A stretch of 64,000 bases of DNA, from positions 1,130-65,129 of the forward strand of contig JAQBYG010000002.1 in assembly GCA_027620445.1 (NCBI GenBank), read 5' to 3'. The translations under genes were made by a program, and so were the position numbers. Within the stretch, counting starts at the first letter, position 1; the number at the start of each line of letters is the position of its first letter. Below the pieces are notes generated by a model, which was not told where the DNA came from, did not search any database, and saw only the letters and a program-made list of their open reading frames with translations. This stretch comes from a bacterium. GTDB lineage: Bacteria; Patescibacteriota; Microgenomatia; UBA1400; PJMF01. This document shows, one piece after another, positions 24,233-37,993 of this stretch.

Positions 24233-25780
24233 ATGCGACTCGTGCTCTCACTACTACTCGTTTCACTTTCTATCATCGGAATTGCTGACTCAGGGTATAT
24301 CAGCTGGAACGAATGGCAACAAATTATTCCAGAATGCGGTGCTGGTTTTGATTGTGGCACAGTCCTCTCTAGCCAATGGGCGCGCATCGGACCAGTGCCG
24401 CTCGCTTACATCGGGCTCATCTATTACATAACAGCATTTGCGCTCAGCATCCTCCATGTTGTCGATTTAGAAGCTGGATCAATCACAAAAAAATTACAAC
24501 GCTTCAAAGCAACCCCAATAGAGCTTCTCTGGTTGCTCACCCTCTTTGGTTTTGTTTTTTCGCTGTATTTAATTTGGATCATGGCATTTGCGATAGGAGA
24601 GTGGTGTAAGTACTGTCTCATTTCGGCGGCGACCTCTTCCAGTCTTTTCTTGCTTTCGAGCATATATCTCAAAACTACTCTCAAACATCCGGCATACTGC
24701 ATCCGCACCCTCCTACAAAAAAAGTTCGGTTTTCTGTATCGACATATTGTTAAACCTATCTTCTTTCTGTTTGATGCGGAGTTTATTCATACCAGCATGC
24801 TCAAGACTGGTGAGTCTCTAGGAAAATCAGCTATAGGAAAAACACTTCTGCGACACTGTTTCTCCGTGCAACACCAGAGTCTGCAAACGACAAAAGCAGG
24901 CATATCGTTCCCGAATAAAGTCGGTCTCTCAGCGGGCTTCGATTACAACGGACAACTCACTGGGATTTTACCTTCAGTTGGCTTTGGTTGGCACACCATC
25001 GGAACGGTGACACTGGAACCGTACGAGGGCAACAAAAAACCACGTCTCGGAAGGTTCCCCAACTCCAAAGCATTGCTGGTAAACAAAGGTCTTAAAAACC
25101 TAGGCGCTCGAAGAATCATCGCTAATCTCGAGAATCAGCACTTTGCAATCCCCACGGGCATCAGCATCGCCAGTACTAACAAACACTTTGACTCAACCAA
25201 ACAGCAGATGCTCGATATCGTTGAGTGCTTTTGGCTCTTTGATCACTCTCGAGTTGGCCATGCCTTCTATGAAATGAACATCAGCTGCCCCAACACCTTT
25301 GAGGGCGAGCCATTCACCACACCTGATCGGCTGGAGTTGTTGCTATCAGCATTAGATCAACTGCAACTGTCAAAACCGGTATTCGTAAAAATGCTGATTG
25401 ATCAAGGAGAGCAAGAAACGAGAGCCCTTCTCACTGTGACTGCCAAACATAACACGGCCGGCGTTATTTTCGGCAACCTCACCAAAAATAAAGAAAGCTC
25501 TGTCATGACTGCGGAGGATCGAGAGCAATGGAAAAAGATGCGCGGCAATATCAGTGGCAAACCAACTTGGGAACAATCGAACAAGCATATCGCACTCACT
25601 AAAAAAGAATTTGGCAATCGCTTTGTCATTATTGGCACTGGTGGAATATTTTCTGCCGCAGATGCGGCCGAAAAAATTCGCTTAGGCGCTGATCTCGTCC
25701 AGCTTATCACCGGGATGGTTTTCCAAGGACCCCAACTTATCGGTGAAATCAATTTGGACCAATGCTACAATACCCGTTGA
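24233..25780 (+). CDS. Fusion protein: N-terminal VKOR (vitamin K epoxide reductase) membrane domain + class-2-like dihydroorotate dehydrogenase
   Basis: VKOR hallmarks: loop Cys pair ECGAGFDCG, TM helices and CXXC (GEWCKYC). DHODH hallmarks: IGTVTLEPYEGNKKPRLGRF, NKGLKNLG, MNISCPNT (a Cys where class 2 has Ser) and GTGGIFSAADAAEKIRLGADLVQLITGMVFQGP. Confidence 0.75.
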   Translation: MRLVLSLLLVSLSIIGIADSGYISWNEWQQIIPECGAGFDCGTVLSSQWARIGPVPLAYIGLIYYITAFALSILHVVDLEAGSITKKLQRFKATPIELLWLLTLFGFVFSLYLIWIMAFAIGEWCKYCLISAATSSSLFLLSSIYLKTTLKHPAYCIRTLLQKKFGFLYRHIVKPIFFLFDAEFIHTSMLKTGESLGKSAIGKTLLRHCFSVQHQSLQTTKAGISFPNKVGLSAGFDYNGQLTGILPSVGFGWHTIGTVTLEPYEGNKKPRLGRFPNSKALLVNKGLKNLGARRIIANLENQHFAIPTGISIASTNKHFDSTKQQMLDIVECFWLFDHSRVGHAFYEMNISCPNTFEGEPFTTPDRLELLLSALDQLQLSKPVFVKMLIDQGEQETRALLTVTAKHNTAGVIFGNLTKNKESSVMTAEDREQWKKMRGNISGKPTWEQSNKHIALTKKEFGNRFVIIGTGGIFSAADAAEKIRLGADLVQLITGMVFQGPQLIGEINLDQCYNTR

Positions 25781-25782
25781 GT

Positions 25783-25853
25783 TGCCCGATCGTCCAATGG
25801 CAGGACAGCGGCCTTTGAAGCCGTCAATCTTGGTTCGAATCCAAGTCGGGCAT
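25783..25853 (+). tRNA. tRNA-Gln (anticodon UUG)
   Basis: U1-A72 acceptor pair typical of bacterial tRNA-Gln, anticodon loop CUUUGAA, T-loop UUCGAAU. Confidence 0.8.
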
Positions 25854-25876
25854 CAATAGCTGCTATAATTTTCCAT

Positions 25877-26452
25877 ATGAAAAACGCAATCATCTTACAC
25901 GGGGGACCGAGCAAAGATGAGTACTATGATCCAACAATGCCGAGTATGAGCAATGCTCATTGGATTCCTTGGCTGCAAGCTCAATTACTCAAAAAAGATA
26001 TTCCGACAGCAACTCCGGAAATTCCAAATGCCTATGATAGAAATTGGCTGGTATGGAGCAGAGAAGTTGAAAGATTTGATATTACAAAAGAAACAATGTT
26101 AATAGGCCACAGCACTGGCGCAGGATTTTTTATCAAGTACCTTTCCATTCATCCAGAGTTACAAGTAGGTAGAGTTATCTTGGTTGCTCCGTGGTTAGAC
26201 CCAGATAGGACTAAGACAGTTAATTTTTTCGACGACTTTGAAATTGACTCTGAATTAGTAAAAAGGACAAATGGTATTACGGTTTGGTACTCAGATAATG
26301 ACGAGGAAAGTGTTTTAAAAACTGCTGAACTCATTAAAAAAAAGACCTCGGGCATTCAATACAAAGAATTTCATAACTATGGTCATTTTTGTATTGGTGA
26401 TTTAAAGAGCAATGAATTTCCTGAATTATTAGAGCTAATTACAGAAGAATAA
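25877..26452 (+). CDS. Alpha/beta serine hydrolase (RBBP9/YdeN-like)
   Basis: IILHGGPS...GHSTGAGF nucleophile elbow; 191 aa. Lies in a low-GC segment. Confidence 0.55.
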   Translation: MKNAIILHGGPSKDEYYDPTMPSMSNAHWIPWLQAQLLKKDIPTATPEIPNAYDRNWLVWSREVERFDITKETMLIGHSTGAGFFIKYLSIHPELQVGRVILVAPWLDPDRTKTVNFFDDFEIDSELVKRTNGITVWYSDNDEESVLKTAELIKKKTSGIQYKEFHNYGHFCIGDLKSNEFPELLELITEE

Positions 26453-26454
26453 CT

Positions 26455-26895
26455 ATGATAAATGAATTTCCTGCAAAAAACACATTGCTTTTAGAATTAC
26501 ATGTTCCAAGCTTTGAAATAACTAAGGAGTTTTATGAGAACCTAGGCTTCAAAGTTGTGTGGGCACGAAATCCAGAAGGTTTTAAAGGATACTTGGTAAT
26601 GAGTCTTGAAGATAATATTTTATGTTTTTGGGCTGGAAATGAAAATGTATATGAACAAGATTATTTCAAAAAATGGGATAAAAATACAAAGAGAGGTTAT
26701 GGAGTCGAAATCGTTTTAATGGTTGAAGATATTGCTAAATTTTACAATGAAGTTAAATCAAGAATTGAAATATTTGAAAAATTGCAAAAAAGACCATGGG
26801 GATTAGAAGATTTTAGAATTGAAGATCCGTTTGGTTATTATTTACGCTTTACATCTAGGCATAATATGTTTGATGATAAGTATGCTGTAAGCTAA
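26455..26895 (+). CDS. VOC (glyoxalase/bleomycin resistance-like) family protein
   Basis: Size and betaalpha-beta-beta-beta pattern. Very AT-rich. Confidence 0.45.
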   Translation: MINEFPAKNTLLLELHVPSFEITKEFYENLGFKVVWARNPEGFKGYLVMSLEDNILCFWAGNENVYEQDYFKKWDKNTKRGYGVEIVLMVEDIAKFYNEVKSRIEIFEKLQKRPWGLEDFRIEDPFGYYLRFTSRHNMFDDKYAVS

Positions 26896-26974
26896 TATTA
26901 GTTCCCACATAGTACAACCACGCCATCAACGATAATTCCTCAAGGTGAACTTTAATCTGATATGATTTGCTGAT

Positions 26975-27667
26975 ATGAAAAATTGGGAAGACTTCAAAAA
27001 AGATGGGGCAAAATTCTCTCCTACTGAAGAATTAGGATTAAGTTTTTTTAAGCCTCAACACCGAAGAATTTTGAGTGTAGGAATTAGCACGGCAGGGTTT
27101 GCAGAAATTAGAATTGCTTTAGAAGATTCGTCAAGAAGTATAGTTGCGACTACACTAGATGTAGAAGGCATTGAATTCTCAAGAGATTTGGTTAAAAAAT
27201 ACAGTTTAGAAAATCAAATTGAGCTAAAAATTGAAGACATCGCTTCTGATTTACCTTATGAAACTGAGTCATTTGATTTCGTGTATGCAAGATTAGTTTT
27301 ACATTACCTGCCAAAAGATCGATTAAAAAAAGCATTAAAAAGTATCTTTGGTTTGTTAAAAGATGGTGGTGAGCTTTTTATTGTAGTTAGGTCATACGAT
27401 TGGGAATCAGAGATAATTGGGGCTTCGTATGATGAAGAGTCTTGTCTAACCACGTATCCAACCTACGATTCAAATAACAAGATTATTAAAACTTCTACAA
27501 GACACCTTCAGACTGTTGGAAGTATTTCCTCTTATTTAAAAAAATCTGACTTTTCGATCAATTCAGTGAAGTTAATTTCAGAAACTATTTATAGTGGGTA
27601 CGAAAGAATTGCTGAGCAGGAAAATAGACTCCCAGCCAATTTGATTGCTGTTCATGCTAGTAGGTAA
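26975..27667 (+). CDS. Class I SAM-dependent methyltransferase
   Basis: ILSVGISTAGF motif I-like and FDFVYARLVLHYL motif. AT-rich. Confidence 0.5.
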   Translation: MKNWEDFKKDGAKFSPTEELGLSFFKPQHRRILSVGISTAGFAEIRIALEDSSRSIVATTLDVEGIEFSRDLVKKYSLENQIELKIEDIASDLPYETESFDFVYARLVLHYLPKDRLKKALKSIFGLLKDGGELFIVVRSYDWESEIIGASYDEESCLTTYPTYDSNNKIIKTSTRHLQTVGSISSYLKKSDFSINSVKLISETIYSGYERIAEQENRLPANLIAVHASR

Positions 27668-27759
27668 ACTTGTTCTCATATAGAACAATCTGCCATCAAT
27701 TTCTCTGCTATACTTTTGTGAATGAAAATCATTCTAAGTGCGCTTGAGCTGGATGAGAT

Positions 27760-28338
27760 ATGAACAAACACCTCCAGGTCGCCGACTTAGTCAAACAAGC
27801 CTACGAACAATCAGAACAAGCATTTGCGCACTGGATGTGGGAAAACCACGTTCCTCTTGTCGCGAAAAAATCAGAAGAGTTGGCACAAAAGTATGGAGCA
27901 AATGAAGATCAAGTTGTTGCCGGTGCTTGACTACATGACTTTGGCGATGCATTTGTACACAGACATTCGTCTGAGCATAATGCAGTTTCTAAAGTAGAAG
28001 CTACTAAAATATTGACTCAATCTGAATACTCTGACGACGAAATTACGAGGGTTCTGGAAGAAGTTATCTTGCCTCACTCTTGCAAAGAAGGGACTTTGCC
28101 GCAATCGTTAGAAGGACAAATACTTGCTACGGCTGATGCAATAGTGCATCTTTCAACAGATTTTTATCTACAATTCGCATGGATGCATTTGCCTGAGGGC
28201 AAGAATTACGCTGAATTTCTTTTATGGGTCCAAGAAAAATTAGATCGAGATTTCAAAACCAAGATTTTTTTTGATGAGGTCAGAGAAGAGTACCGACATA
28301 AATATGATGCGTTGAAACAGGTTTTTGTGAAGAAATAA
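27760..28338 (+). pseudogene. HD-domain phosphohydrolase interrupted by an in-frame TGA (codon 57)
   Basis: A single frame reads MNKHLQV...NHVPLVAKK...VVAGA*LHDFGDAF...ATADAIVHLS.... The stop falls 1 residue before the conserved HD dyad. The ATG at 27760, the TGA at 27928-27930 and ORF 28012..28338 are all in the same frame. Confidence 0.55.
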
Positions 28339-29015
28339 TGATGAACCTATACTCAGAGTCAGCAGCCAGTTATTGCGAACGAATCGGCACTGGAATTTTT
28401 AGCGAACCCATAAATTTATTCACAAATGTATTCTTGCTTGTTGCAAGTTTTTTTTCTCTCAAGCTGTTACAAAAGCATAATCTTCTCAAAAAAAAGTATG
28501 TTTCGCTAGCGATTTTAGTTGGGTTAATTGGTATTGGCAGCGGACTTTGGCATAGTTTTAGAAACCCTATTACACACGCTATGGACTTCATTCCAATATA
28601 TGCTTTTTTTATCGTCTACCTCTACAGCCTATTCCTCTTGCTGACAAAGAAAAAAATGAGCTCACTTGGGATCACAATCGCATATGTTTTTGCTCAAGTT
28701 TGGCTCTCTGCATACCTTCCACAACTGCTTAATGGATCAATCCGTCATGTTTTTAACCTCGGACTGATTATTGGAGTTTTGCTGTGGTTAAGGACTAGAT
28801 ATCAGAAACTTAACTACCCCCTACTTGCCCTATTTCTAACCTACGGCTTGGGTGTCTTTTTTAGATCAATTGACAAGGCAGTCTGTGAAAGTTTCCCAGT
28901 GGGAACACATTTTGTATGGCACATTGCAGCAGCGATCACTTGCTTTTATGCAGTAAAGTCTCTGGTCTGGATAGAAGAAAATACTGATACTACCAAGACC
29001 AAGACTATCCTATAG
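28338..29015 (+). CDS. Alkaline-ceramidase-like (CREST superfamily) integral membrane hydrolase
   Basis: 7-TM protein with an N-terminal YCERIGTGIFSEPINLFTNV motif resembling the ceramidase/PF05875 signature. Confidence 0.4.
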   Translation: MMNLYSESAASYCERIGTGIFSEPINLFTNVFLLVASFFSLKLLQKHNLLKKKYVSLAILVGLIGIGSGLWHSFRNPITHAMDFIPIYAFFIVYLYSLFLLLTKKKMSSLGITIAYVFAQVWLSAYLPQLLNGSIRHVFNLGLIIGVLLWLRTRYQKLNYPLLALFLTYGLGVFFRSIDKAVCESFPVGTHFVWHIAAAITCFYAVKSLVWIEENTDTTKTKTIL

Positions 29016-29173
29016 TTTGACACCAAATAATCCATGTGTTATACTTCCCATCAGTTGATTGAGAAATATATCTCAACATGGTTTTAGCTCGCGAGAGTTT
29101 TTAAGAAAAGTTCCCTTAAACAAATTCGCTTCTTGTCTTTAACCCAACAGAGTACTTAAAGGAAGAAGTATCT

Positions 29174-30412
29174 ATGCAAAACTTTAATCGTGGTGGTCGT
29201 GGTTTTCAGAACCGGGCCAACAACTATCGTGGTCGGAATAATTTCTCTGGATTTGGAAGTCGCGGCAATCGAGGTGGACGCAGACAGGCAACCTTCGATC
29301 CAACTCCAGTGATTATTCAGGCCGGAATTCAACAAGCAGAAACTGCCAAGAATCTGGATGAGCAAGAGGTCTTTGCACCCAAGCATTTGTTTACTGATTT
29401 TGCCATTTCCGACAAACTCAAGGACAATATTGCGCAGCGAGGCTACAGCACCCCAACGCCAATCCAAGATCAGATAATCCCACATATTCTGGAGGGTCGA
29501 GATGTTGTCGGTATTGCCAATACAGGCACGGGTAAGACTGCTGCATTTTTGATTCCCTTACTAGAAAAAGTTGTCAAAAATCCAAATGAAAAAGTGCTGA
29601 TCATTGTGCCAACCAGAGAGCTCGCACTCCAAGTGCGTGACGAGCTCATGTCGTTTGCCGATGGTCTGCAAATCTACTCGAGCCTTTGCATTGGCGGTGC
29701 GCCGATCTTCCGACAGATTGAATCACTCAGACGTGGTCAACACTTTGTGATTGGCACACCGGGAAGAATTAAGGATCTTAATCAGAGACGCAAAATCCGT
29801 TTTGAGCAATTTACCAATATCGTTTTGGACGAGGTTGATCGCATGCTCGACATGGGTTTTGTGCACGAGATTCGAGAGATCATTAATGTACTACCGAACC
29901 AGCGACAATCACTCTTTTTCTCGGCAACAATGAATCCGCGCGTGAAGGAAATCATGCAAGGATTTCTGAACGACCCAGTCAGTATCTCAGTGAAAACACA
30001 GGAAGCTTCCAATCGGGTGACGCAGGAACTCGTCAAGCTCAATGGTAAGTCAAAAGTTGACGTGCTACACGATCTTCTGAATACCGAAGGGTTTGCCAAG
30101 GTGCTCGTGTTTGGTCGCACCAAACATGGGGCAGAGAAGTTATCCAAAGAACTGCAAACTCGTGGATTTAAAGTCGACGCCATTCATGGCAATAAATCGC
30201 AGGGTCAGCGACAACGCGCGCTCAGAGACTTCAAGAGTAGCTACATCCAGGCGCTGATCGCGACCGACGTGGTCTCTCGCGGAGTTGATATCGATGATGT
30301 TACCCACGTGATCAATTACGATCTGCCAGAGTCATACGAAGACTACATCCATCGCATAGGTCGCACTGGTCGGGCAGATAAAATCGGAACTGCTCTGACA
30401 TTTCTAGACTAA
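29174..30412 (+). CDS. DEAD-box ATP-dependent RNA helicase with N-terminal RGG/arginine-glycine-rich tail
   Basis: Q-motif (FTDFAISDKL...GYSTPTPIQ), AxxGxGKT, DEVD, SAT and HRIGRTGR. The first 40 aa are RGG/RGN repeats. Confidence 0.9.
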   Translation: MQNFNRGGRGFQNRANNYRGRNNFSGFGSRGNRGGRRQATFDPTPVIIQAGIQQAETAKNLDEQEVFAPKHLFTDFAISDKLKDNIAQRGYSTPTPIQDQIIPHILEGRDVVGIANTGTGKTAAFLIPLLEKVVKNPNEKVLIIVPTRELALQVRDELMSFADGLQIYSSLCIGGAPIFRQIESLRRGQHFVIGTPGRIKDLNQRRKIRFEQFTNIVLDEVDRMLDMGFVHEIREIINVLPNQRQSLFFSATMNPRVKEIMQGFLNDPVSISVKTQEASNRVTQELVKLNGKSKVDVLHDLLNTEGFAKVLVFGRTKHGAEKLSKELQTRGFKVDAIHGNKSQGQRQRALRDFKSSYIQALIATDVVSRGVDIDDVTHVINYDLPESYEDYIHRIGRTGRADKIGTALTFLD

Positions 30413-30446
30413 CTCAGCAGCTCATTTTGTGTGATACCATCGTGAC

Positions 30447-31568
30447 ATGCCCAGGTTATTTACCGTAGCCTCCGTTCTAATTGCCGTAAGTATTTTGATA
30501 GCAATTTGGAGCAGACTCTCATACACCGAGTTGGTTTTGGGGAACCGTCCTGTTTTAGACTTGGACAACTACCATCTGACGGCTCAGGAAGTGCTAGCTG
30601 GAGAACATCCATATGAGTTGAGTCATATGGAGACTCTCGGACCACCATCGGTACTCATTCCGTACTTGCTGACATCTCAACTCAGTGAGCGATTAAATAG
30701 AGTCTTTTGGACTACTGCAAATCTATTGGGACTTATCGTCACTGTTGTTCTATTTGCCAAAACACTTGCCAAGAAAAATTTGCTATTAGCTACAAGTTTA
30801 CTACTGATCGTTTCACTGATTTCTTTTCCTGTAAGATTCAGTTTGGAAATGGGACAACCAAACTTGGTAATTGCTGGTCTTATCTCACTCGTTCTATTCA
30901 AAAAAAAGTTCTCTGGTTTCAGCTTGGCAGTTATAGTTTTATTTAAAACTTTTTTTGTAGTGAGTTTAGCTTCGCTTGTCACAAGGAAAAAAGTACTACT
31001 CAGCACTCTCATTTTCGGATCCATTATGTTTCTTGGAACTTTCTGGGTAATAAAACCAGAGTTTTACTATGACTTTATTACAAACAATTTGGCAACAACT
31101 TTAGCTCAAGAAAATATCCAAGCCGGCAGTCTGAACTACTACAATCAATCAATTGTGGCAGCTGTAGCGAGAATGATTGGCAGTAGTGAAACAGGAAGTC
31201 TCAGTATTTTATTTTTAGGACTCGGTCTACTTCTTTGCCACTACTCAAAGAGCCTAAAGATTGGTTTTGTGAGTTCCGTTCTTGTATCTCCAATCTTATG
31301 GCAACACTACATTGCAGCCTTGCTGCCGATCTACTTCCTAACAGGCAAATATGTGTATCAATCAAAGAATTGGTCCCTTATCTCGATCTTTTTGCTGTCA
31401 ATCACACTGCTCTGGGTAGAATTTCCCTGGTTACATCTACATAAAAATGGTGTCTTTCCAGCTCTATTAGCATCTCACTTTCTGGTTGGATTGTTCATGC
31501 AGTTGTGGTTGGTGGCAAAGATGGAAAGGGGCAGTAATCTGATCTCAGATGCAAAATTGACAAACTAG
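30447..31568 (+). CDS. GT87/DUF2029-family polytopic membrane glycosyltransferase (PimE/MptB-like)
   Basis: Multi-TM protein whose first extracytoplasmic loop carries LDNYHLTAQEVLAGEHPYE...GPPS, resembling the DUF2029 signature. Confidence 0.5.
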   Translation: MPRLFTVASVLIAVSILIAIWSRLSYTELVLGNRPVLDLDNYHLTAQEVLAGEHPYELSHMETLGPPSVLIPYLLTSQLSERLNRVFWTTANLLGLIVTVVLFAKTLAKKNLLLATSLLLIVSLISFPVRFSLEMGQPNLVIAGLISLVLFKKKFSGFSLAVIVLFKTFFVVSLASLVTRKKVLLSTLIFGSIMFLGTFWVIKPEFYYDFITNNLATTLAQENIQAGSLNYYNQSIVAAVARMIGSSETGSLSILFLGLGLLLCHYSKSLKIGFVSSVLVSPILWQHYIAALLPIYFLTGKYVYQSKNWSLISIFLLSITLLWVEFPWLHLHKNGVFPALLASHFLVGLFMQLWLVAKMERGSNLISDAKLTN

Positions 31569-31569
31569 T

Positions 31570-33243
31570 TCACAGTTTTTCGAAAATAATGAATCGTTTG
31601 TTGCCATTTGGATAATCGATTTCATGAATTTTAGTGATTTTCGATTCTGCTAGAGTTCCGCCATTTACATCAAGGCAAATTGCGTTGGCAAAATACAAGA
31701 CAGCATCTTGAAGTACATCTGTCTCTGGACAACTCGCGACATCAAACAAATAGTTATCAAATCCATAGTTTCTTCTATTTTCCTCAGTAGCAAAAATGTT
31801 CGAAGGTCGAGTATCTGCCAAAGCCTGTACTCGTCTGGGATCTACTTTGCGATAAAAAAAGTAGAAAATGTCAGGTGCCTCATCGAAACCAAAAACGTGC
31901 ACTCGAATGTACCGTGACTCTACTGTGGATAAAAATGAATATGCTTCTTTATAACCATAATCTCGAGCTAAAATTGTTTCATACTGCGTATGCACGTGAT
32001 ATTGGTTGAGGAAGTAGCCAAATGACCACAGGCACGTCAAAGCAATTGGCAGTAACAACAAGCGACCAAACCTCACTTGCCTCAACCACGAAACTGAAAG
32101 GTATATGCCCTCGGCGATGAAAACATACAGTGGCAAGTATAAAAACATGCTTCGCTTTACATGTGGAAAGGCGGTTGTTGTGAGAACGGCGGGCAGTATC
32201 GCAATACTGATCCAGCCTAGCAAGAGCAAGCGTTGGCGTTGTGTAAAACGAGTTGACACAAATATGCCCAGCAACAAAAATGGTGCAAAAAACGGCAACA
32301 ACTGTCCAGCTCCAGGTACTTCATACCTACCTGGTTTCCCAGCAGAAAAGAACAAAAAATTGCTACTCAAAAACGTGCCTGCATTTCCTATTGTTTGCGT
32401 TGTTAGAGACGCAAGCTTATTGTGAAAAATTCGTGATACCAGAATAGGGACATGCATATTTCCCTCACGAAAAAAATATTCCTGACCGATCGGTTGGGCA
32501 TTTGTAAAAATACTATTGCCTGCAAAATTATCTCCAGCCCCAGGAATTATGTAAACGCTAGCAAATGAAATTATCACGAACACGATGCCAAAAGATACTA
32601 TATGCAACTTTTTTCTGATATCTTTCCACCAATACCATGTGAGTAGCAACTGCAGCAGTGGCAATGCAAGCTTAACCCCGTTGTAGCTAAAAAGTGCCCC
32701 AGCATACAACAATCCAATAATCAACATAACTTTTGTCTTTGGCTTCTTGACCCATTCTGACCACAACAACCACGCCAACAAAGCAAACGCTAATGCAACA
32801 ACGGCTTCACTACCAGAACGCGACTGTACCAGATCCCAAGGAGAAATTGTAACAATTGCAGCTACCACTAAGCCGAGCTCGGTACTTCGAAACAACTTTC
32901 TCACCCAAAGAAAAGAAAGTGGAATTAAGAGTGTTCCGAATACAATTGCTGGCCAACGCTCAGCTAACTCACTCAACCCAAAAACGGGAATTGAAGCTGC
33001 AACCAGGTAATTGTAAAAGGCGGGAGGATAATCACCCAAAGCTTTAGTATGAAGTGGGAGTAGCTGTCCCCAATCATCCCTGCCTGTTTGCAATATGCTA
33101 TAGGCACTATAGGCAATGCCTGCTTCATCACGATGAAAACCAGCAGGAATACTCGGCTGCCCAACAAATCGAAGTAGAAAACCAACCAGTACGAAGGCTG
33201 TGAGAATGAGATACCTATTGTTGACCGAGGCAAGCATTTTCAT
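31570..33243 (-). CDS. GT-C glycosyltransferase, PMT/ArnT (GT39/GT83)-like, paralog A
   Basis: HRDEAG DE-motif in loop 1 after TM1 and about 12 TM segments; 557 aa. Confidence 0.65.
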   Translation of the reverse strand: MKMLASVNNRYLILTAFVLVGFLLRFVGQPSIPAGFHRDEAGIAYSAYSILQTGRDDWGQLLPLHTKALGDYPPAFYNYLVAASIPVFGLSELAERWPAIVFGTLLIPLSFLWVRKLFRSTELGLVVAAIVTISPWDLVQSRSGSEAVVALAFALLAWLLWSEWVKKPKTKVMLIIGLLYAGALFSYNGVKLALPLLQLLLTWYWWKDIRKKLHIVSFGIVFVIISFASVYIIPGAGDNFAGNSIFTNAQPIGQEYFFREGNMHVPILVSRIFHNKLASLTTQTIGNAGTFLSSNFLFFSAGKPGRYEVPGAGQLLPFFAPFLLLGIFVSTRFTQRQRLLLLGWISIAILPAVLTTTAFPHVKRSMFLYLPLYVFIAEGIYLSVSWLRQVRFGRLLLLPIALTCLWSFGYFLNQYHVHTQYETILARDYGYKEAYSFLSTVESRYIRVHVFGFDEAPDIFYFFYRKVDPRRVQALADTRPSNIFATEENRRNYGFDNYLFDVASCPETDVLQDAVLYFANAICLDVNGGTLAESKITKIHEIDYPNGNKRFIIFEKL

Positions 33244-34976
33244 GTTACTTTTTTAAGATCTGTAATCCACTGTTTACAGAAGACTTCCTCACTGAGAGTA
33301 TGCAAGCGAAATTGATCTAAGCTCGAAACCTGTATGAATGTACCTAAATCATACTGTCCACAAACCTTATCATTGAGGATTTCATAGACACTTCCACTAT
33401 CCTTCAGCGCGGGAATGGTAATTTTATTCGCATCTGCAGAAAATTCTGTCAACGCTCTACAACGATCACGAATCGCTTCTGTGACACCCAAAGTTATTCC
33501 ATCGTCGTCATCAACACAGGTATTTTGAAATCTAATGTTATCAAAAGTATATGTCCCAGCGCGAAACGAATCTGAGATCTGTCCAACTGTGTCCTGTGAA
33601 ACTGAGCCCGAGTGCAATAGATAGCTAGAGAATAATATCGGAGGGTCAATGGTGTAGACGACTATCTGCTCGTCTGGATAGCTCTCTCTCGCCCAACCGA
33701 TGTATTGCGCCAGCACCCGTTCTTGAAAGAATCCTGCATCGGCTCCCATGACAGGGTAACGCACAAAGTATTGACTGGCAAAATTGAGTACTGATAGAGC
33801 ATAGAGTAGAACTAACACCCATCGAAATCTCGACTGCCACCAGACAAAAGCACCCCAACTGATTACCAACAACAGTAAAGTATAAGCAAAAAATGAACGC
33901 AATAAGTACCACTCGCTCGTCAGGTTAATAATTACCGGAACTGCAAAAAAGGGTAGTGCAAGTAGAAAGCTTAATCCAATAACCCGAGTCTTCTTCCGTT
34001 GGAGTGCACCAATACCAATCAGCAGTAACGCAATATCTAAGAGGTAAAACAACCCATGACTCCAAACAGCAAACCCACTCGCAGACGGCTCAGAATTGAG
34101 AAATAACAAATGAGGTGAAAATGAATTGAGCAACTTGTCAGCAGACAATTGAATGAGCGCAGTCACTTTATTGGAGAAAAGAGGCGCAATCGGCAATTGC
34201 AAAGCTTTGCGTCTCTGATCATTCGCTATTTCGCTAAGCACAGATTGATCTTGCAACAAAGTTCCTTCAAGGCGGCCATCAACATCTTGGTTCGGTAACA
34301 TAAAAAGCAAGTAGGCCAGGAGCAAAACCACAGAGGCAACAAGAGGAACAATGCGCAACTTCCACGACTCCTTTTTGTGCTGCAAGAGCCAAATGAATGT
34401 GAGCAGTGCCAACCAAGGTACGAGCAGTAATTTGAAACCCTGGTACTGAAAAAATCCTACAGCAAAAACTGGAATAGACCATAAAAATCCTCGCTTCGTG
34501 TTCGAAAAGAACAACGCGCCTCCAAGAAAGTAAAAGAAGGTTGAGTAAACTGCATCGTAGGAAAGCCTACTAAACTGCCACCAAAGAGGGTTTAGCGAAG
34601 CAATTACTGCCGCAATCCAAGCTAATGTTTTATCGCGCCAAATTCCCCAACAAAACCAACCAAAGACGAAGGGAAAAACAATACCCATGAGTGCAGTTGG
34701 TATTCTCACCGCCAGCAACGGATTGTCGGTAACCCAAAAAAGCGGTGTCATAAAAAGAGCTGGCAGCTCTGCATAAAAGGGATGAACCGGTCGCATGCTG
34801 TACCATGCCTGATCTTGTGTGAGTGTCGTACCTTGAACAGCAAAAGACTTAGCAACAATGCCATATACCACCTCATCATGTGTCAAAAAGGGTGGCAAAG
34901 TATCGAGCGATATAAACCTTGTGAGGAATAAGAACAAGAGAATTACTGCCAAAAATAATTTGTTTTTCTGTAACAT
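33240..34976 (-). CDS. GT-C glycosyltransferase, PMT/ArnT (GT39/GT83)-like, paralog B
   Basis: THDEVVYG DE-motif, polytopic N-terminal half plus a soluble C-terminal domain; 578 aa. Confidence 0.65.
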   Translation of the reverse strand: MLQKNKLFLAVILLFLFLTRFISLDTLPPFLTHDEVVYGIVAKSFAVQGTTLTQDQAWYSMRPVHPFYAELPALFMTPLFWVTDNPLLAVRIPTALMGIVFPFVFGWFCWGIWRDKTLAWIAAVIASLNPLWWQFSRLSYDAVYSTFFYFLGGALFFSNTKRGFLWSIPVFAVGFFQYQGFKLLLVPWLALLTFIWLLQHKKESWKLRIVPLVASVVLLLAYLLFMLPNQDVDGRLEGTLLQDQSVLSEIANDQRRKALQLPIAPLFSNKVTALIQLSADKLLNSFSPHLLFLNSEPSASGFAVWSHGLFYLLDIALLLIGIGALQRKKTRVIGLSFLLALPFFAVPVIINLTSEWYLLRSFFAYTLLLLVISWGAFVWWQSRFRWVLVLLYALSVLNFASQYFVRYPVMGADAGFFQERVLAQYIGWARESYPDEQIVVYTIDPPILFSSYLLHSGSVSQDTVGQISDSFRAGTYTFDNIRFQNTCVDDDDGITLGVTEAIRDRCRALTEFSADANKITIPALKDSGSVYEILNDKVCGQYDLGTFIQVSSLDQFRLHTLSEEVFCKQWITDLKKVT

Positions 34977-35009
34977 TGATACCGTATACTATAGTCCGTC
35001 AAACCGATT

Positions 35010-36407
35010 ATGCCTACTCACTTTTTCAAACAATTGCAAAAAAACTGGTATGTAGTTTCACTCAGTCTTGCACTCATACTCATTTGTCTCACCCGAGTTT
35101 ATAAATTAGACGTATATCCCAGAGGTTTTTTTGTTGATGAGTCCTCGGTTGCATATAATGCACTCAGTATTGCGCTCACAGGAAAAGACGAGTACGGCAT
35201 TCCTTTTCCAGTCTACTTCAAAGCATTTGGTGAGTACAAAAACCCAATACTCATCTACTCCCAGGCACTCCTATACTCCTTTGTTCCTGCGACGATTTAC
35301 ACCGCACGACTCGCACCAGCTCTCTGGGGACTCGCTTTTATTATCCTAACCTGGATCTATACCAAAGGGGAGTCTACCAACCTACGACTGATCAAAACAA
35401 TACTAGTTGCTACCACCCCCTGGCTCTTTCATCTAAGTCGTGTGGACTTTGAAGTGATCGTCTTTCCCACGCTAGTGCTAGCAAGCTTGCTTCCTCTGAG
35501 ACGCTTCTTTTCAAAGCGCAAATCAAGAGACTGGCTTCTTTTTGTTCTAATCATTTCTATATCATTCTATAGCTATACCGCTGCACGATTGCTTGCACCA
35601 CTCATTCTCATTCTGGCTGGAGCAATCACCCTCTTGGCACAAAAGCGAGCAGCTCTCAAACCAATACTACTCGGAATAGTGCTCTCTATACTTATCATAA
35701 CTCCTGCAATAATTTGGAATTATTACTACCCTAATAGCTTGCTCGCTCGCTACGAACTCGTAGGCAAAAGTGATGCACCAATAGCAAGGCAACTCAAAAG
35801 TATTGTGTCAAGATATCGCGAGCACACAAGACTTTCATACCTCTTTGAGGTAGGGGACAATAACTTGCGCCACAGTACTGGCAAAGGTCTGTTGCCGCTG
35901 ATTTCTCTGCCATTATTTCTAATTGGACTAACCCAGTTCTGGCAGAAAAGAAAACATCCCTACAACTGGTTTATCTTGGGAGGTCTTTTACTCAGCCCAC
36001 TACCTGCAGCCATGACATGGGATGATGTTCCGCATGCATTGCGGTCAATTCTCTTTGTCGTTTTCTTTTTACTTGTCGTGTTTGCAGGGCTCGATTGGAC
36101 TATCAAACTGAAACAGGGAAAGCGTTGGTTGACTGTCACTACAATAATAATTTTTGCCGAGTTCTTCAGTTACTGGTCACAGTACCGAGCTGTGTATCAA
36201 ACAACCAACTATAAGTGGTTTTTTGTTGGAGATCTTGAAAAGATAACCGAACTGTATGAGCAAAAGCAAGACTTTGAAATTGAGGAGACGACATTCTTTG
36301 GCACGTATGCCACTGTAGCATTTATCTACCACTACCCACCCGAGTTATTTCAGCGAACAAAACAGGGACACAAAACAGAGCGAATTGAATTTATAGAAAA
36401 TAACTGA
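35010..36407 (+). CDS. GT-C glycosyltransferase, PMT/ArnT (GT39/GT83)-like, paralog C
   Basis: FFVDESSVAYN DE-motif; polytopic; 465 aa. Confidence 0.65.
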   Translation: MPTHFFKQLQKNWYVVSLSLALILICLTRVYKLDVYPRGFFVDESSVAYNALSIALTGKDEYGIPFPVYFKAFGEYKNPILIYSQALLYSFVPATIYTARLAPALWGLAFIILTWIYTKGESTNLRLIKTILVATTPWLFHLSRVDFEVIVFPTLVLASLLPLRRFFSKRKSRDWLLFVLIISISFYSYTAARLLAPLILILAGAITLLAQKRAALKPILLGIVLSILIITPAIIWNYYYPNSLLARYELVGKSDAPIARQLKSIVSRYREHTRLSYLFEVGDNNLRHSTGKGLLPLISLPLFLIGLTQFWQKRKHPYNWFILGGLLLSPLPAAMTWDDVPHALRSILFVVFFLLVVFAGLDWTIKLKQGKRWLTVTTIIIFAEFFSYWSQYRAVYQTTNYKWFFVGDLEKITELYEQKQDFEIEETTFFGTYATVAFIYHYPPELFQRTKQGHKTERIEFIENN

Positions 36408-36478
36408 GCGAGAAACGGGGTTCGAACCCGCGGCCTCTTCCTTGGCAAGGAAGCGCTCTACCACTGAGCTATTCTCGC
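36407..36478 (-). tRNA. tRNA-Gly (anticodon GCC)
   Basis: Acceptor GCGAGAA/UUCUCGC, anticodon loop UUGCCAA, T-loop UUCGAAC. Confidence 0.85.
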
Positions 36479-36695
36479 GCGTCGCTATTGTACAACGAGC
36501 TGGTGTATACTCAAAGTATGAGCATGAAATCATATCTTTCGTCGCCAGATTTTAACCGCAGAGCAGGCTATGCCGGGCAAGACACCGCCAAATTTTTGGG
36601 GAAAACGCTTGGGATAATCATCGCTGAAACTGCGAAATTTATAAAAGAACTTCTCATGAGCATGCTGGGCAAAAGGTAAGCACAAAGAAACTTTG

Positions 36696-36768
36696 TGCCA
36701 AGCTCAGGAATCGAACCTGAATTTCATGTTTTTCAGACATGCGCCGTGACCGACTTGGCTAGCTTGGC
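36696..36768 (-). tRNA. tRNA-Phe (anticodon GAA)
   Basis: Acceptor GCCAAGC/GCUUGGC, anticodon loop CUGAAAA, T-loop UUCGAUU. Confidence 0.8.
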
Positions 36769-36772
36769 ACTG

Positions 36773-36846
36773 TGGACGCTGAGGGATTCGAACCCCCGAC
36801 ACCCGCGATGTAAACGCGGTGCTCTAACCAGCTGAGCTAAGCGTCC
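36773..36846 (-). tRNA. tRNA-Val (anticodon UAC)
   Basis: Acceptor GGACGCU/AGCGUCC, anticodon loop UUUACAU, T-loop UUCGAAU. Confidence 0.85.
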
Positions 36847-36863
36847 GATTCTCTCATCGTCTG

Positions 36864-36944
36864 TGCCCGGGAGAGGACTTGAACCTCCACACCTTTCGGC
36901 ATACGCACCTCAAGCGTACGTGTATACCATTTCACCACCCGGGC
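36864..36944 (-). tRNA. tRNA-Leu (anticodon GAG)
   Basis: Acceptor GCCCGGG/CCCGGGC, anticodon loop UUGAGGU, long variable arm. Confidence 0.8.
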
Positions 36945-36967
36945 TCAAATAGCATTATATAACATTG

Positions 36968-37050
36968 TGCCGAAGAGAGGAGTCGAACCTCCATCCCGCA
37001 AGCGGGACACGCTCCTGAAGCGTGCGCGTCTACCATTCCGCCACTTCGGC
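36968..37050 (-). tRNA. tRNA-Leu (anticodon CAG)
   Basis: Acceptor GCCGAAG/CUUCGGC, anticodon loop UUCAGGA, long variable arm. Confidence 0.8.
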
Positions 37051-37075
37051 ACGTAACACAGACCAGATTGTACCA

Positions 37076-37774
37076 TTACTCGGAGAATTTTTGCTTGAAA
37101 GCCTCGATGATTATGTCTCGAGCTCGCGGGACCGTAAAATACGTTGTATTTATTGTCAAATCAAACACATTCCTGCGCCTATTGTCGGTCACAAAGTATT
37201 GTTTGACAAACTCCTCGCGCTCTGCCTCAACTTTTGCAATTGTTTCTTTTGCCTGCTGATTATTGAATCCCTCAAATTCCATTGCGCGACTCACGCGAAC
37301 AGAGTAGGGGGCGGTGACATTTACATGAAGCCCTTTTGCCTGGGGAGTGAAACTGTTGGCGCCTCTACCCAAAATGACAACATTGCCTTTACATGCGTGG
37401 GCAATAATAACCTTCATCATTTCAGAAATAAAAACCGTATCGCTCACGTACTCTACGTTCAGAACTGAGTGAACAATGTCATCAATGCGAGAACGACTTT
37501 TTTCGTCAAGTTCTTTAATAATTGCGCGTCGCTTTTTTGTGGAGTTTGCGATCTCGTCAATGATCTGTTGATCAATAAACTCAAAGTTAAGCTTCTTGGC
37601 AACCGCCATCGCAATCGGTTTGCCACCACTTCCCGGGTCGCGAGCGATGGTAATAAAGGGGCGAGGAAATGCGTCGTCTGTAGGAATGAGACCACTAATC
37701 TCTTTTTTGAGTTGAAATAAACGGAGTGCTTTATCGACCATTTGCGCGTACGATCGTGCCATGTTTCTCGCCAT
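37076..37774 (-). CDS. Cytidylate-kinase-like family P-loop protein
   Basis: ITIARDPGSGGKPIAMAVAKKLNFEFIDQQ matches the Cytidylate_kin2 (PF13189) signature. The ORF-track N-terminus (to 37987) runs through two tRNA genes, so the start was moved to the MARNMARS Met. Confidence 0.55.
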   Translation of the reverse strand: MARNMARSYAQMVDKALRLFQLKKEISGLIPTDDAFPRPFITIARDPGSGGKPIAMAVAKKLNFEFIDQQIIDEIANSTKKRRAIIKELDEKSRSRIDDIVHSVLNVEYVSDTVFISEMMKVIIAHACKGNVVILGRGANSFTPQAKGLHVNVTAPYSVRVSRAMEFEGFNNQQAKETIAKVEAEREEFVKQYFVTDNRRRNVFDLTINTTYFTVPRARDIIIEAFKQKFSE

Positions 37775-37833
37775 TATACTACTCGATCGTAGGATGTCAT
37801 CTGCAAGCTTCACGATGGTATAATTCAACGGCT

Positions 37834-37907
37834 GCACCCGTAGCTCAATTGGATAGAGCGTCTGTCTTCGGAACAGAAGGTTGTGAGTTCGATTCTCGCC
37901 GGGTGCA
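37834..37907 (+). tRNA. tRNA-Arg (anticodon UCG)
   Basis: Acceptor GCACCCG/CGGGUGC, anticodon loop CUUCGGA, T-loop UUCGAUU. Confidence 0.75.
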
Positions 37908-37912
37908 CACGT

Positions 37913-37986
37913 GGGCCAGTAGCTCAGTTGGTTAGAGCAATTGCCTCTTAAGCAATGTGTCCCGGGTTCGAGTCCCGGCTGGCTCA
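37913..37986 (+). tRNA. tRNA-Lys (anticodon CUU)
   Basis: Acceptor GGGCCAG/CUGGCUC, anticodon loop CUCUUAA, T-loop UUCGAGU. Confidence 0.8.
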
Positions 37987-37993
37987 CAAAAAT

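Follow-up and report, generated by a model that had tools for sequence, protein, structure and literature searches.

Four glycosyltransferase genes lie side by side at positions 30447–36407 of the window, i.e. of the whole 64-kb stretch of DNA that has been analysed, and the question that they raise is whether they serve one dedicated pathway, as was suggested in the preliminary description, or belong to several separate enzymes. Our comparison, which establishes the fold and family membership of the four genes, their conserved motifs, and their order together with its variation, confirms that all four (g1 to g4) encode integral-membrane proteins of the GT-C fold; it favours, with a probability of about 0.78, four separate GT-C membrane glycosyltransferases, one GT87-like (g1) and three PMT_2/ArnT-like paralogues (g2–g4), and not one conserved pathway. 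Sets of GT-C genes such as this one are ordinary for Patescibacteria, save for the subfamily of g3, which is missed by the standard domain libraries.

Arrangement and common features of the four genes

The open reading frames have been found where they had been described, and profiles, folds and homologues agree on their families: g1 (30447–31568, plus strand, 373 aa) is a relative of GT87/PimE; g2 (31570–33243, minus strand, 557 aa, or 555 aa with a start at the third codon) is of the PMT_2 type; g3 (33240–34976, minus strand, 578 aa) is a GT-C member whose subfamily has no profile model; and g4 (35010–36407, plus strand, 465 aa) is PMT_2/ArnT-like. Profile and fold comparisons have placed none of them among unrelated membrane-protein families or with O-antigen ligase. 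The gene content of the earlier account, a GT87-like gene and three PMT/ArnT-like paralogues, is upheld, while the single series in which it had arranged them is not: the minus strand carries g2 and g3, and the genes therefore do not all run in one direction. The stop of g3 and the start of g2 overlap by four bases, and the divergent genes g3 and g4 are separated by a 33-bp spacer. Judged by BLASTP, g2, g3 and g4 are distant yet significant paralogues (1e-14 for g2–g4, 1e-8 for g2–g3 and 0.024 for g3–g4), in keeping with the divergence that had been claimed; paralogues as divergent as these plausibly serve different acceptors or sugars.

The DE motifs reported for the three paralogues are real, and each is an acidic pair of the first outer loop: D39-E40 in g2 (HRDEAG; 33124..33129, minus strand), D34-E35 in g3 (THDEVVY; 34872..34877, minus strand), where the pair is putatively catalytic, and D43-E44 in g4 (VDESSV; 35136..35141, plus strand); the pair of g2 aligns with those of g3 and g4 in BLASTP. 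Residues D34, E35, R20 and Y38 of g3 are invariant in 41 homologues, as are D43, E44 and D60 of g4 in 44 homologues, with E61 nearly so, and the invariance of the DE pair in both families points to constraint and not to chance. In ArnT and Pmt1, the active-site acidic pairs D55/E56 and D77/E78 are likewise located in the first outer loop (PMC7801869); the pair of g3, which follows TM1, is their putative counterpart by position, not by residue-level structural alignment.

The GT87-like gene g1

The product of g1 passes the Pfam threshold of GT87 (PF09594; E=3.2e-11, 43.9 bits, cut-off 25) and is named "glycosyltransferase family 87 protein" by NCBI; its closest homologue has just 38% identity, and the profile of its family (A4) matches the structure of PimE (9dm5_A) at E=2.4e-12 over about 270 residues. 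PimE from Mycobacterium abscessus (GT87; PDB 9DM5) is the polyprenyl-phosphate-mannose:Ac1PIM4 alpha-1,2-mannosyltransferase, where D58 and Y62 are both essential and Q163, K195, W319 and H321 are needed for activity (PMC12041525). The last four align with the invariant residues Q137, K167, W285 and H287 of g1, whereas H322 of PimE is replaced by a tyrosine (Y288). The first outer loop of g1 holds the segment D38-L-D-N-Y42 (30558..30572, plus strand), i.e. a putative catalytic aspartate with its tyrosine partner: D38 and Y42 are invariant across 20 homologues and share the D-x3-Y spacing of D58 and Y62 of PimE, to which they correspond by pattern only, because the HMM alignment begins downstream. 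Among the four products, g1 is the only one that resembles a known mannosyltransferase.

The surroundings of g1 differ from those of a phosphatidylinositol-mannoside enzyme. No genes of that pathway have been seen in the window, and the neighbours of g1 homologues in other genomes are a tRNA synthetase gene and a Glyco_trans_2_3 gene rather than genes for lipid glycans. In three other genomes the g1 homologue does not directly adjoin another GT-C gene; in one of the three, a partial PMT_2-like gene is located about 6.6 kb away, at a contig edge.

The PMT_2/ArnT-like genes and the g3–g2 pair

Of the three paralogues, g2 is the one that standard profiles recognise: it passes the thresholds of both Pfam PMT_2 (PF13231; 5.4e-8, 33.6 bits, cut-off 26.1) and Pfam PMT (1.7e-6, 28.3 bits, cut-off 22.7), and NCBI names it, like g4, "glycosyltransferase family 39 protein". 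The products of g3 and g4 themselves pass no curated family threshold, PMT_2 included. For g4, which has no Pfam match even at E<=10, the assignment comes from its family: PMT_2 is matched by 32 of the 44 homologues, the family profile matches ArnT (5ezm_A, 9.7e-5), and a partial match to TIGR03663 (Agl23; 4.9e-8) lies under the cut-off.

The product of g3, a "hypothetical protein" in the NCBI naming, has no Pfam match even at E<=10 and no NCBIfam match, and is placed in the PMT_2/ArnT-like branch of GT-C by profile–profile comparison together with an AlphaFold model. An hhalign comparison of the g3 and g4 families gives a probability of 99.7% (E=3e-27; 446 aligned columns). The model (pLDDT 87.3, pTM 0.90) has about 11 membrane helices ahead of a soluble domain, so that the count of about 12 helices per paralogue given earlier does not hold for g3; its significant Foldseek matches in the PDB are all GT-C, the top 24 having a probability of 1.00 and including AglB, ALG12, Pmt4, ArnT, STT3 and PglB, with modest TM-scores of 0.38–0.45. 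At E<=1e-30, the g3 family comprises 602 clusters (50% identity); it is a sizeable subfamily, mostly from Patescibacteria-labelled genomes, that the current profile libraries miss.

The C-terminal soluble domain of g3 (residues 415–578; 33243..33734, minus strand) is predicted to lie outside the cytoplasm, on account of the 11 helices that precede it, of four cysteines that are invariant in 41 homologues (C487, C506, C539 and C567), and of a VKOR-domain gene in the same window. Modelled alone, the domain reaches a pLDDT of 93.4, and it has no significant fold match in the PDB (best E=0.52, TM 0.30).

Orthologues of g2 are located directly downstream of g3 orthologues in both relatives that have been examined (L001, 60% identity; L032, 66%), i.e. 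g3 and g2 are a tightly coupled, conserved pair. Among relatives that are more distant, the neighbours of the g3 homologue are GT-C genes of other types, and not consistently of the g2 type.

One or more of the four products might be a non-catalytic scaffold or a decaying paralogue: GT-C-fold proteins without activity exist, such as PIG-U (PMC7801869, PMC12041525), and g3 and g4 lie under every curated threshold. We regard this as very improbable, given four intact, full-length open reading frames with full-length homologues, the invariance of the first-loop acidic residues and of many other loop residues across 20–44 homologues at 25–40% identity, and the hundreds of conserved full-length clusters of the g3 family.

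Likely mechanism and comparison with known GT-C enzymes

For the four separate enzymes, we infer donor type, membrane topology, enzymatic activity and acceptor from the families to which they belong. All four would span the cytoplasmic membrane and have their active sites on its outer side. A GT2 synthase would build the donor, a polyprenyl-phosphate-sugar, on the inner side, from where it would be flipped across; the acidic residues of the first outer loop (D38 of g1 and the DE pairs of g2–g4) would then serve the transfer of one sugar to a surface acceptor, for which wall glycopolymers, glycolipids and secreted or membrane proteins are all candidates. Selection of the acceptor may fall to the outer domains at the C-terminus, of which that of g3 is probably disulfide-bonded. 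The sugar is not readable from GT-C membership, as GT-C families cover many sugars (PMC7801869).

Among enzymes of known structure, ArnT (GT83; Cupriavidus metallidurans, PDB 5EZM/5F15), with which the g3 model also matches (5ezm and 5f15), resembles this group in its first-outer-loop acidic pair and in having a soluble domain C-terminal to the membrane core. ArnT has 13 membrane helices, in contrast to the roughly 11 of the g3 model, and adds aminoarabinose to lipid A in diderm bacteria; lipid A is not expected in Patescibacteria-type genomes. Furthermore, the window holds no arn genes, and no solved structure matches the C-terminal domain of g3. The best Foldseek matches of the g3 model are the oligosaccharyltransferases AglB (7e9s, E=1.3e-5), PglB and STT3, with which it has the GT-C membrane core in common; however, its identity to them is 12%, the TM-scores are 0.40–0.45, its C-terminal domain has neither a WWDYG-type motif nor a match to their periplasmic domains, and sequence profiles connect g3 with the PMT_2 group instead of STT3.

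The protein O-mannosyltransferases Pmt1–Pmt2 and Pmt4 (GT39; PDB 6P25, 9I5K) have about 11 membrane helices, as the g3 model does, and match g3 in the fold comparison at an identity of only 12–16%. They bring in one form of our main reading, in which g2–g4 would be protein O-glycosyltransferases, similar to PMT or to the streptococcal PgtC2 and PgfM1, that decorate Ser/Thr-rich stretches of pilins, of S-layer proteins or of further surface proteins, with g3 and g2 perhaps joined in a heteromer like Pmt1–Pmt2. This form is possible, though unlikely. It is consistent with the match of g2 to PMT as well as to PMT_2, with the presence of Pmt4 and Pmt1–Pmt2 among the fold matches of g3, and with the retention of the g3–g2 pair, which recalls the dimeric PMTs, a dimer and the use of mannose being hypothetical here; moreover, Ser/Thr-rich surface regions are glycosylated by GT-C enzymes in monoderm bacteria (PMC12041528). 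However, neither the MIR domain loop nor the PMT_4TMC domain has been detected in g2–g4, no candidate acceptor gene adjoins the cluster, and the pairing with the g2 type is not consistent in distant relatives.

Sugar supply and the dedicated pathway

The single pathway of the preliminary description would use the cluster for mannosylation or arabinosylation with several acceptor specificities, and would receive its Man-1-P from a block of genes about 10 kb downstream. The block is present (46223–49043), separated from the cluster by unrelated genes and tRNAs, and consists of a HAD-IIB/PMM-like gene, a PfkB gene and a gene of the bifunctional PGI/PMI type, and g1 is related to PimE, an enzyme that depends on polyprenyl-phosphate-mannose. 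The product of 46223–47005 passes the Pfam threshold of PMM (47.3 bits, cut-off 22.4), but models of generic HAD-IIB phosphatases give it scores that are no lower (Hydrolase_3, 49.7 bits; TIGR01484, 76.7 bits); the product of 47961–49043 resembles bifunctional PGI/PMI, but its matches are under the equivalog cut-offs. Past these three genes come a PEP-synthase-like fragment, enolase and phosphoglycerate mutase, so that the block has the appearance of central carbon metabolism, i.e. of a glycolysis-type run.

Neither a GT2 polyprenyl-phosphate sugar synthase nor a GtrA-type or Wzx flippase is present in the 64-kb window, nor is any sugar-1-phosphate nucleotidyltransferase, GDP-mannose pyrophosphorylase included; the donor-making genes would be located elsewhere in the genome. 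Together with the opposed transcription units, the conservation of the g3–g2 pair only in the two relatives examined, and the position of the g1 homologues away from other GT-C genes, this makes one dedicated pathway improbable, and we prefer the four separate enzymes.

Variable GT-C arrays in the lineage

At the otherwise syntenic locus of the closest relative, L032, both g1 and g4 are absent. At least two GT-C genes occur within 10 kb in 17 of the 27 species-level loci that hold a g3 homologue, and at least four in nine of the 27; L001 and L026 have nine GT-C genes apiece, within 18–22 kb. Genes g1 and g4 are variable additions, and the locus is one case of the variable GT-C arrays that are common in the lineage. 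In the arrays of relatives, GT2 genes are found beside the GT-C genes; the GT2 product of L001 has matches to AglJ, PpgS and PgfS, which are polyprenyl-phosphate sugar synthases, all three scoring under the cut-offs.

Such arrays recall the three-component systems of monoderm bacteria, which combine a GT2 of the GtrB/CsbB type, a GtrA or Wzx flippase and a GT-C enzyme (GtlB, YfhO, GacL, PgtC2). The families of g1–g4 agree with the description of the GT-C component, i.e. an outer-loop acidic motif, 8–13 helices and an identity that is recognisable mainly through structure prediction (PMC8035078), and relatives carry a GT2 of the polyprenyl-phosphate type beside it. The window differs in that it holds the GT-C component only, four times, and the lineage differs in having up to nine paralogues per locus, far more than the one or two that are usual in the described systems.

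These systems suggest another form of our main reading, which we put forward tentatively: the enzymes may add sugars to, or lengthen, glycolipids or envelope polymers other than proteins, e.g. teichoic-acid-like or secondary wall polysaccharides or, for g1, phosphatidylinositol-mannoside-like lipids, with GtlB, YfhO and GacL of Firmicutes and PimE and Emb of mycobacteria as models. The PMT_2-type GtlB glycosylates lipoteichoic acid, and wall polysaccharides are decorated by GT-C enzymes in monoderm bacteria (PMC8035078); in addition, g1 keeps active-site residues of the lipid-glycan enzyme PimE, an inositol monophosphatase family gene is located at 2148–2921 of the window, and the multi-GT-C arrays with GT2 in relatives resemble glycan-decoration loci. 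On the other hand, genes for teichoic-acid, rhamnan or phosphatidylinositol synthesis have not been seen in the window, whose lone CDP-alcohol transferase signal falls short of significance (E=0.16), and this form is not firmly ranked against protein glycosylation.

The bacterium itself, which has a small genome, most likely belongs to Patescibacteria (the NCBI phylum Minisyncoccota), within the group of Pacebacteria, Woesebacteria and Microgenomatus. The homologues come from metagenome-assembled genomes of Pacebacteria, Woesebacteria, Microgenomatus and "Patescibacteria group"; among the records of related genomes, roughly one in two bears the label "uncultured Pseudomonadales".

Gene layout of the four-gene locus

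The region between positions 30447 and 36407 of the window is occupied by four long open reading frames (ORFs) with spacers near zero: g1 (30447-31568, + strand, 373 aa), g2 (31570-33243, - strand, 557 aa), g3 (33240-34976, - strand, 578 aa) and g4 (35010-36407, + strand, 465 aa). ORFs g1 and g2 are convergent, with one base between them; the stop codon of g3 and the start codon of g2 share a four-base overlap, while g3 and g4 are divergent and lie 33 bp apart. The preliminary description had placed here a GT87-like gene followed by three paralogues; the four ORFs are indeed present at that place, but they are distributed over both strands, so that at most g3 and g2 can form one transcript. 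A scan of positions 29000-37200 for consensus promoters and terminators has returned counts equal to the shuffled expectation, and thus no transcription units can be drawn from it.

We have also considered whether the locus is a horizontal-transfer island and have rejected this: the G+C content of g1-g4 is 0.40-0.43 against 0.449 for the window, a difference that is too small and is moreover expected for membrane proteins, so that a foreign origin cannot be argued from it. The variation in gene content relative to L032, the most closely related locus in another genome, is better evidence of flux than the G+C content.

ORF g4 is flanked by tRNA genes, namely Gly, Phe, Val, Leu and Leu at 36406-37050 (-) and Arg and Lys at 37834-37987 (+), with the g4 stop codon abutting tRNA-Gly. 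The 5' end of a cytidylate-kinase-like ORF (37076-37987, 303 aa) overlaps the Arg and Lys tRNAs; since its orthologue in L032 has only 228 aa, the true start is probably located further in.

Family placement of g1, g2 and g4

The preliminary description had read the locus as one GT87-like and three PMT/ArnT-like glycosyltransferases, and the classification by profile models agrees for g1 and g2, which pass member models of the GT-C superfamily (Pfam clan CL0111), and for g4 through its homologues. ORF g1 matches Pfam GT87 (PF09594) at 43.9 bits (cut-off 25), a domain that is also present in 19 of the 21 g1 homologues found, g1 itself not being counted; g2 matches PMT_2 (PF13231) at 33.6 bits (cut-off 26.1) and PMT at 28.3 bits (cut-off 22.7). 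Neither g3 nor g4 has a Pfam match, even at E<=10, or an NCBIfam model above its cut-off; g4 shows a partial, sub-threshold match to TIGR03663/Agl23. Despite this, g4 is easily placed by sequence with the PMT_2 group, as 32 of 44 g4 homologues match PMT_2, the g4 family profile matches the ArnT structure 5ezm (9.7e-5), and BLASTP connects g2 with g4 at 1e-14 (and g2 with g3 at 1e-8). A search of solved-structure sequences with g2 alone has given no match.

In the public annotation at NCBI, where the MAG has the locus tag prefix O2840 and the proteins MDA1079199-MDA1079202, g1 is named "GT87 family", g2 and g4 are named "GT39 family" and g3 is a "hypothetical protein", in agreement with our assignments for three of the four genes. 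True GT39 protein mannosyltransferases in the sense of CAZy (eukaryotic PMT, actinobacterial Pmt) differ from these proteins: they combine the PMT core with a MIR-domain loop and/or a C-terminal PMT_4TMC domain, whereas neither MIR nor PMT_4TMC is found in g2, g3 or g4, and the match of g2 is confined to the N-terminal PMT region (profile positions 46-231).

The g3 family and its C-terminal domain

The protein g3 belongs to a large family without annotation. A word-indexed search has yielded 59 full-length homologues, none of which carries a precomputed Pfam domain, and an exhaustive search with the g3 family profile has yielded 602 clusters (50% identity) at E<=1e-30, a number that rises to 4471 when the threshold is relaxed to E<=0.001. 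Against solved-structure sequences, the same profile gives only a spurious match to PsaK (E=0.028); because nothing meaningful came from such sequence searches, the fold had to be obtained from structure prediction.

The AlphaFold model of g3, built with 41 sequences, has a pLDDT of 87.3 and a pTM of 0.90, and the top 24 Foldseek matches to it in the PDB are all GT-C enzymes, including AglB, ALG12, Pmt4, ArnT, STT3, PglB, ALG9, DPY19, Pmt1/2 and EmbB; in addition, hhalign aligns the g3 family with the g4 family over 446 columns (99.7% probability, E=3e-27). An O-antigen ligase, the outcome that the preliminary description had named as speaking against its reading, is not what g3 turns out to be; the possibility of an O-antigen ligase/Wzy-type protein or a transporter has been rejected, with transporters first appearing in Foldseek at E>0.04, with probability <=0.2 and TM ~0.1. 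The assignment of g3 and its family of ~600 clusters to the GT-C fold goes beyond the existing annotation.

The model comprises ~11 membrane helices (hydropathy windows, in which segments overlap, are unreliable for exact helix counts); the first outer loop is long and includes two short helices. The loop at residues 233-300, which bears the invariant N269/K270 and the near-invariant R255/R256, is modelled with less confidence. A soluble domain starts near residue 415; modelled alone, it reaches a pLDDT of 93.4, and its comparison with the PDB gives no significant fold match (best E=0.52, TM 0.30), so that this domain, without a match among solved structures, is likewise an addition to what is annotated. 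The locus does not conform to an oligosaccharyltransferase of the STT3/PglB/AglB type: there is no STT3 Pfam match, the C-terminal domain of g3 contains no WWDYG-type motif, and the isolated domain model matches no OST structure.

Four cysteines of the C-terminal domain, C487, C506, C539 and C567, are invariant. The odd number of helices in the model, combined with a Lys-rich N-terminus, would put the domain on the outer side of the cell, in surroundings that allow disulfides to form. A gene for a VKOR-domain protein (24233-25780) is located 8 kb away; the VKOR family is involved in disulfide-bond formation.

Conserved residues of the putative active site

All four proteins have one or more acidic residues in the predicted first extracytoplasmic loop: D38 in g1 and Asp-Glu (DE) pairs in g2 (D39-E40), g3 (D34-E35) and g4 (D43-E44), the three pairs being correctly recognised in the preliminary description. 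In g3, D34/E35 are invariant, together with R20 and Y38, across 41 homologues of 29-78% identity, and in g4, D43/E44 are invariant across 44 homologues of 24-68% identity, which argues that these pairs are not chance dipeptides; the pair of g2 is matched to those of g3 and g4 by BLASTP alignment only. The pairs of g2-g4 follow the first membrane helix, in the loop that bears the catalytic pair in ArnT (D55/E56) and Pmt1 (D77/E78) (PMC7801869); the putative equivalence with these two pairs is one of position.

The g1 family profile matches the structure of PimE (9dm5_A, E=2.4e-12; PMC12041525), and the HMM alignment pairs the invariant g1 residues Q137, K167, W285 and H287 with PimE Q163, K195, W319 and H321, while PimE H322 is replaced by Y288 in g1. 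The PimE residues that are needed for activity are D58, Y62, Q163, K195 and W319, with H321/H322 contributing; mutation of Q163, K195 or W319 abolishes activity, and mutation of H321 reduces it (PMC12041525). The invariant D38-x3-Y42 of g1 has the spacing of the essential D58/Y62, although D38 and Y42 lie outside the aligned stretch and are matched to PimE by spacing and loop position only. These conserved residue patterns argue that all four proteins are predicted active enzymes and not relics.

Surroundings of the locus and donor supply

Across the 64-kb window, ~70 ORFs have been scanned, small ones included. The content is of a housekeeping nature (EF-P, GlmS, the DEAD, RecQ and UvrAB helicases, LexA, 12 tRNAs, enzymes of CoA synthesis and two enolases). 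A polyprenyl-phosphate mannose synthase of the GT2 type, which the preliminary description had proposed to look for, is absent here, as no PF00535-type GT2 occurs among these ORFs; the same is true of the GtrA, Wzx and polysaccharide-flippase families and of sugar-1-phosphate nucleotidyltransferases. The locus therefore differs from a complete transmembrane glycosylation system, in which a GT2 and a flippase accompany the GT-C enzyme.

The block of three genes that had been suggested to feed mannose 1-phosphate is present, but its reading is ambiguous. The first gene (46223-47005) scores above threshold with Pfam PMM (47.3 bits) as well as with Hydrolase_3 (49.7 bits) and is a generic HAD-IIB hydrolase in NCBIfam; the second (47006-47968) is a PfkB kinase of ambiguous substrate; the third (47961-49043) resembles bifunctional PGI/PMI enzymes, below the equivalog cut-offs. 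The block leads straight into a PEP-synthase-like fragment, an enolase and a cofactor-independent phosphoglycerate mutase, and reads as central carbon metabolism by its looks; a role in sugar supply is at most conceivable. Between g4 and the block lie seven tRNAs, the cytidylate-kinase-like gene, an asparaginase fragment, two phosphoesterases, a YgjP-like peptidase and a holA-like gene.

The PEP-synthase-like protein (49069-50559, +, 496 aa), located between PGI and enolase, matches PEP synthase/pyruvate phosphate dikinase in the N-terminal ATP-binding part only (PPDK_N, 30 bits) and has no phosphohistidine or PEP-utilising domains. The two enolase genes, at 2926-4182 (+) and 50566-51861 (+), are both full-length and both score ~455 bits on TIGR01060, in what is a small genome.

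Gene-order variation in related genomes

Homologues of g3 occur in species-representative genomes of Pacebacteria (which NCBI places in the phylum Minisyncoccota), Woesebacteria, Microgenomatus and "Patescibacteria group" MAGs, and many more records carry the unconfirmed label "uncultured Pseudomonadales". In L032, g3 is 79% identical and the flanking genes on both sides are syntenic at 62-84%, and the locus contains g3 and g2 only, g1 and g4 being absent. The next relative, L001, has a g3 of 68% identity; here the g3-g2 pair is part of a row of nine genes of GT-C type (PMT_2, PMT, PTPS_related and unassigned), after which comes a GT2 of 241 aa. In NCBIfam this GT2 is closest to the polyprenyl-phosphate sugar synthases AglJ, PpgS and PgfS, reaching the cut-off of none of these models. 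The g4 orthologue of the same sample is on another contig, adjoining a DEAD helicase.

Among 27 species-level loci, two or more GT-C genes lie within 10 kb in 17 and four or more in nine, and the GT-C types that adjoin the g3 homologue vary from locus to locus. An obligate pairing of g3 with g2 throughout the lineage has been rejected, as the neighbour of g3 in more distant genomes is often another GT-C type, or none. Homologues of g1 in three other genomes have no GT-C gene directly adjacent: in one, a partial PMT_2-like gene lies ~6.6 kb away at a contig edge, and in two, the neighbours of the g1 homologue are RmuC, a tRNA synthetase and a Glyco_trans_2_3 gene.

The four genes had been taken for a single dedicated pathway. 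Given that L032 lacks g1 and g4 and that the g1 homologues elsewhere do not directly adjoin other GT-C genes, the set is not conserved as a pathway unit; it is instead specific to its lineage, put together around g3 and g2 as the conserved pair. That related genomes carry large, reshuffled GT-C arrays also goes beyond the existing annotation. Our literature search on GT-C or PMT-type enzymes in Patescibacteria/CPR has found nothing specific; one paper on Saccharibacteria names a GT87 gene as belonging to a putative phosphatidylinositol-mannoside route (PMC6031116).

The runs of nine GT-C-type genes occur in L001 (1-17102) and in L026 (222-16756), are drawn from several families (PMT_2, PMT, PTPS_related and unassigned), with one or two small GT2 genes inside the run or at its end, and contain far more such genes than described bacterial glycosylation loci. 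A second variable spot adjoins the GT-C genes: L032 also lacks the block at 25.8-29.1 kb (~25783-29015), which contains tRNA-Gln, a hydrolase (Ser_hydrolase), a glyoxalase, a methyltransferase, small ORFs and a ceramidase-like membrane protein of 225 aa (Ceramidase PF05875, 42.4 bits, cut-off 32.5).

Proposed mechanism, acceptors and significance

The fold, motifs and gene order of the locus are results of the analysis; the donor, topology, activity and acceptor of g1-g4 are inferred. In the established GT-C scheme (PMC8035078, PMC7801869, PMC12041525, PMC12041528), a GT2 at the cytoplasmic face loads a sugar onto polyprenyl phosphate, the lipid-linked sugar is flipped over the membrane, and the GT-C enzyme passes it, by means of the acidic residue of its first loop, to an acceptor outside the membrane. 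All four enzymes probably follow this scheme, with a different acceptor for each and perhaps also a different sugar, and the donor-making genes would be located outside the window. A polyprenyl-phosphate donor would fit the PF00535-type GT2 genes that adjoin the GT-C arrays of L001, L003, L008 and L026. The mechanism itself is not new: the enzymes fit a known scheme and would not surprise a specialist.

With regard to the acceptor, the enzymes could decorate wall polymers or glycolipids, or they could O-glycosylate proteins; we consider these two readings about equally probable and both tentative. For g1 alone, the likeness to PimE speaks for mannose as the sugar and for a glycolipid or a glycan as the acceptor. 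A conceivable glycosylation target is encoded at 6215-7327 (-), a protein of 370 aa with a right-handed beta-helix and Chlamydia-PMP-type repeats that is possibly a surface protein.

Patescibacteria have tiny genomes and many of them apparently live attached to host cells, while, to our knowledge, almost nothing is known of their surface covering. The share of the genome that is given to GT-C genes, i.e. 6 kb for four outward-facing sugar transferases here and up to 18-22 kb for nine in relatives, suggests that surface glycosylation is important and evolves quickly. A fold and a likely activity are now attached to a family of ~600 clusters that is publicly "hypothetical". The analysis likewise shows that GT-C enzymes of the Patescibacteria lineage are undercounted by domain libraries.

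A more far-reaching reading, to which we give a probability of roughly one in five, is that the g3 family (~600 clusters at 50% identity, without Pfam, NCBIfam or solved structure) would constitute a GT-C family of its own that occurs for the most part in Patescibacteria, that its disulfide-stabilised C-terminal domain would be a new acceptor-recognition fold, and that g3 and neighbouring GT-C paralogues (here g2), possibly as a Pmt1-Pmt2-like heteromer, would give the surface of these ultrasmall, host-dependent bacteria a pattern of sugars that varies between strains. If this is true, host attachment or phage evasion in the lineage would depend to a large extent on the fast-reshuffled arrays, in which up to nine GT-C genes are combined.

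Additional loci of the window

The VKOR-domain gene at 24233-25780 (+) encodes a fusion protein of 515 aa, conserved in L032, in which an N-terminal VKOR domain (residues 6-133) is joined to a quinone-dependent dihydroorotate dehydrogenase (168-507; NF003652, 258 bits, cut-off 267); this suggests a common quinone for pyrimidine synthesis and for the formation of disulfide bonds in an organism of minimal metabolism. A second fusion (17650-18600, +, 316 aa) joins pantetheine-phosphate adenylyltransferase (NF001985, 130 bits, cut-off 104) to DUF359; the DUF359 part and one of the adenylyltransferase matches correspond, at sub-threshold scores, to equivalog models of Thermococcales (archaea), among them that of GTP-dependent dephospho-CoA kinase. 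This is an indication that CoA synthesis in this bacterium ends with steps of archaeal type. At 21624-23426 (-), a protein of 600 aa, also kept in L032, matches the Elp3 tRNA-modification radical SAM/GNAT enzyme (TIGR01211, 478.7 bits against a cut-off of 350); Elp3 is known mainly from archaea and eukaryotes, with few bacterial homologues. Lastly, the ORF at 55818-56576 (-) is a homologue of CofE-like gamma-glutamyl ligases; it scores highest with TIGR04132, the model of a 'putative folate metabolism gamma-glutamate ligase' (226.6 bits, below the cut-off of 350), and not with the F420 ligase.
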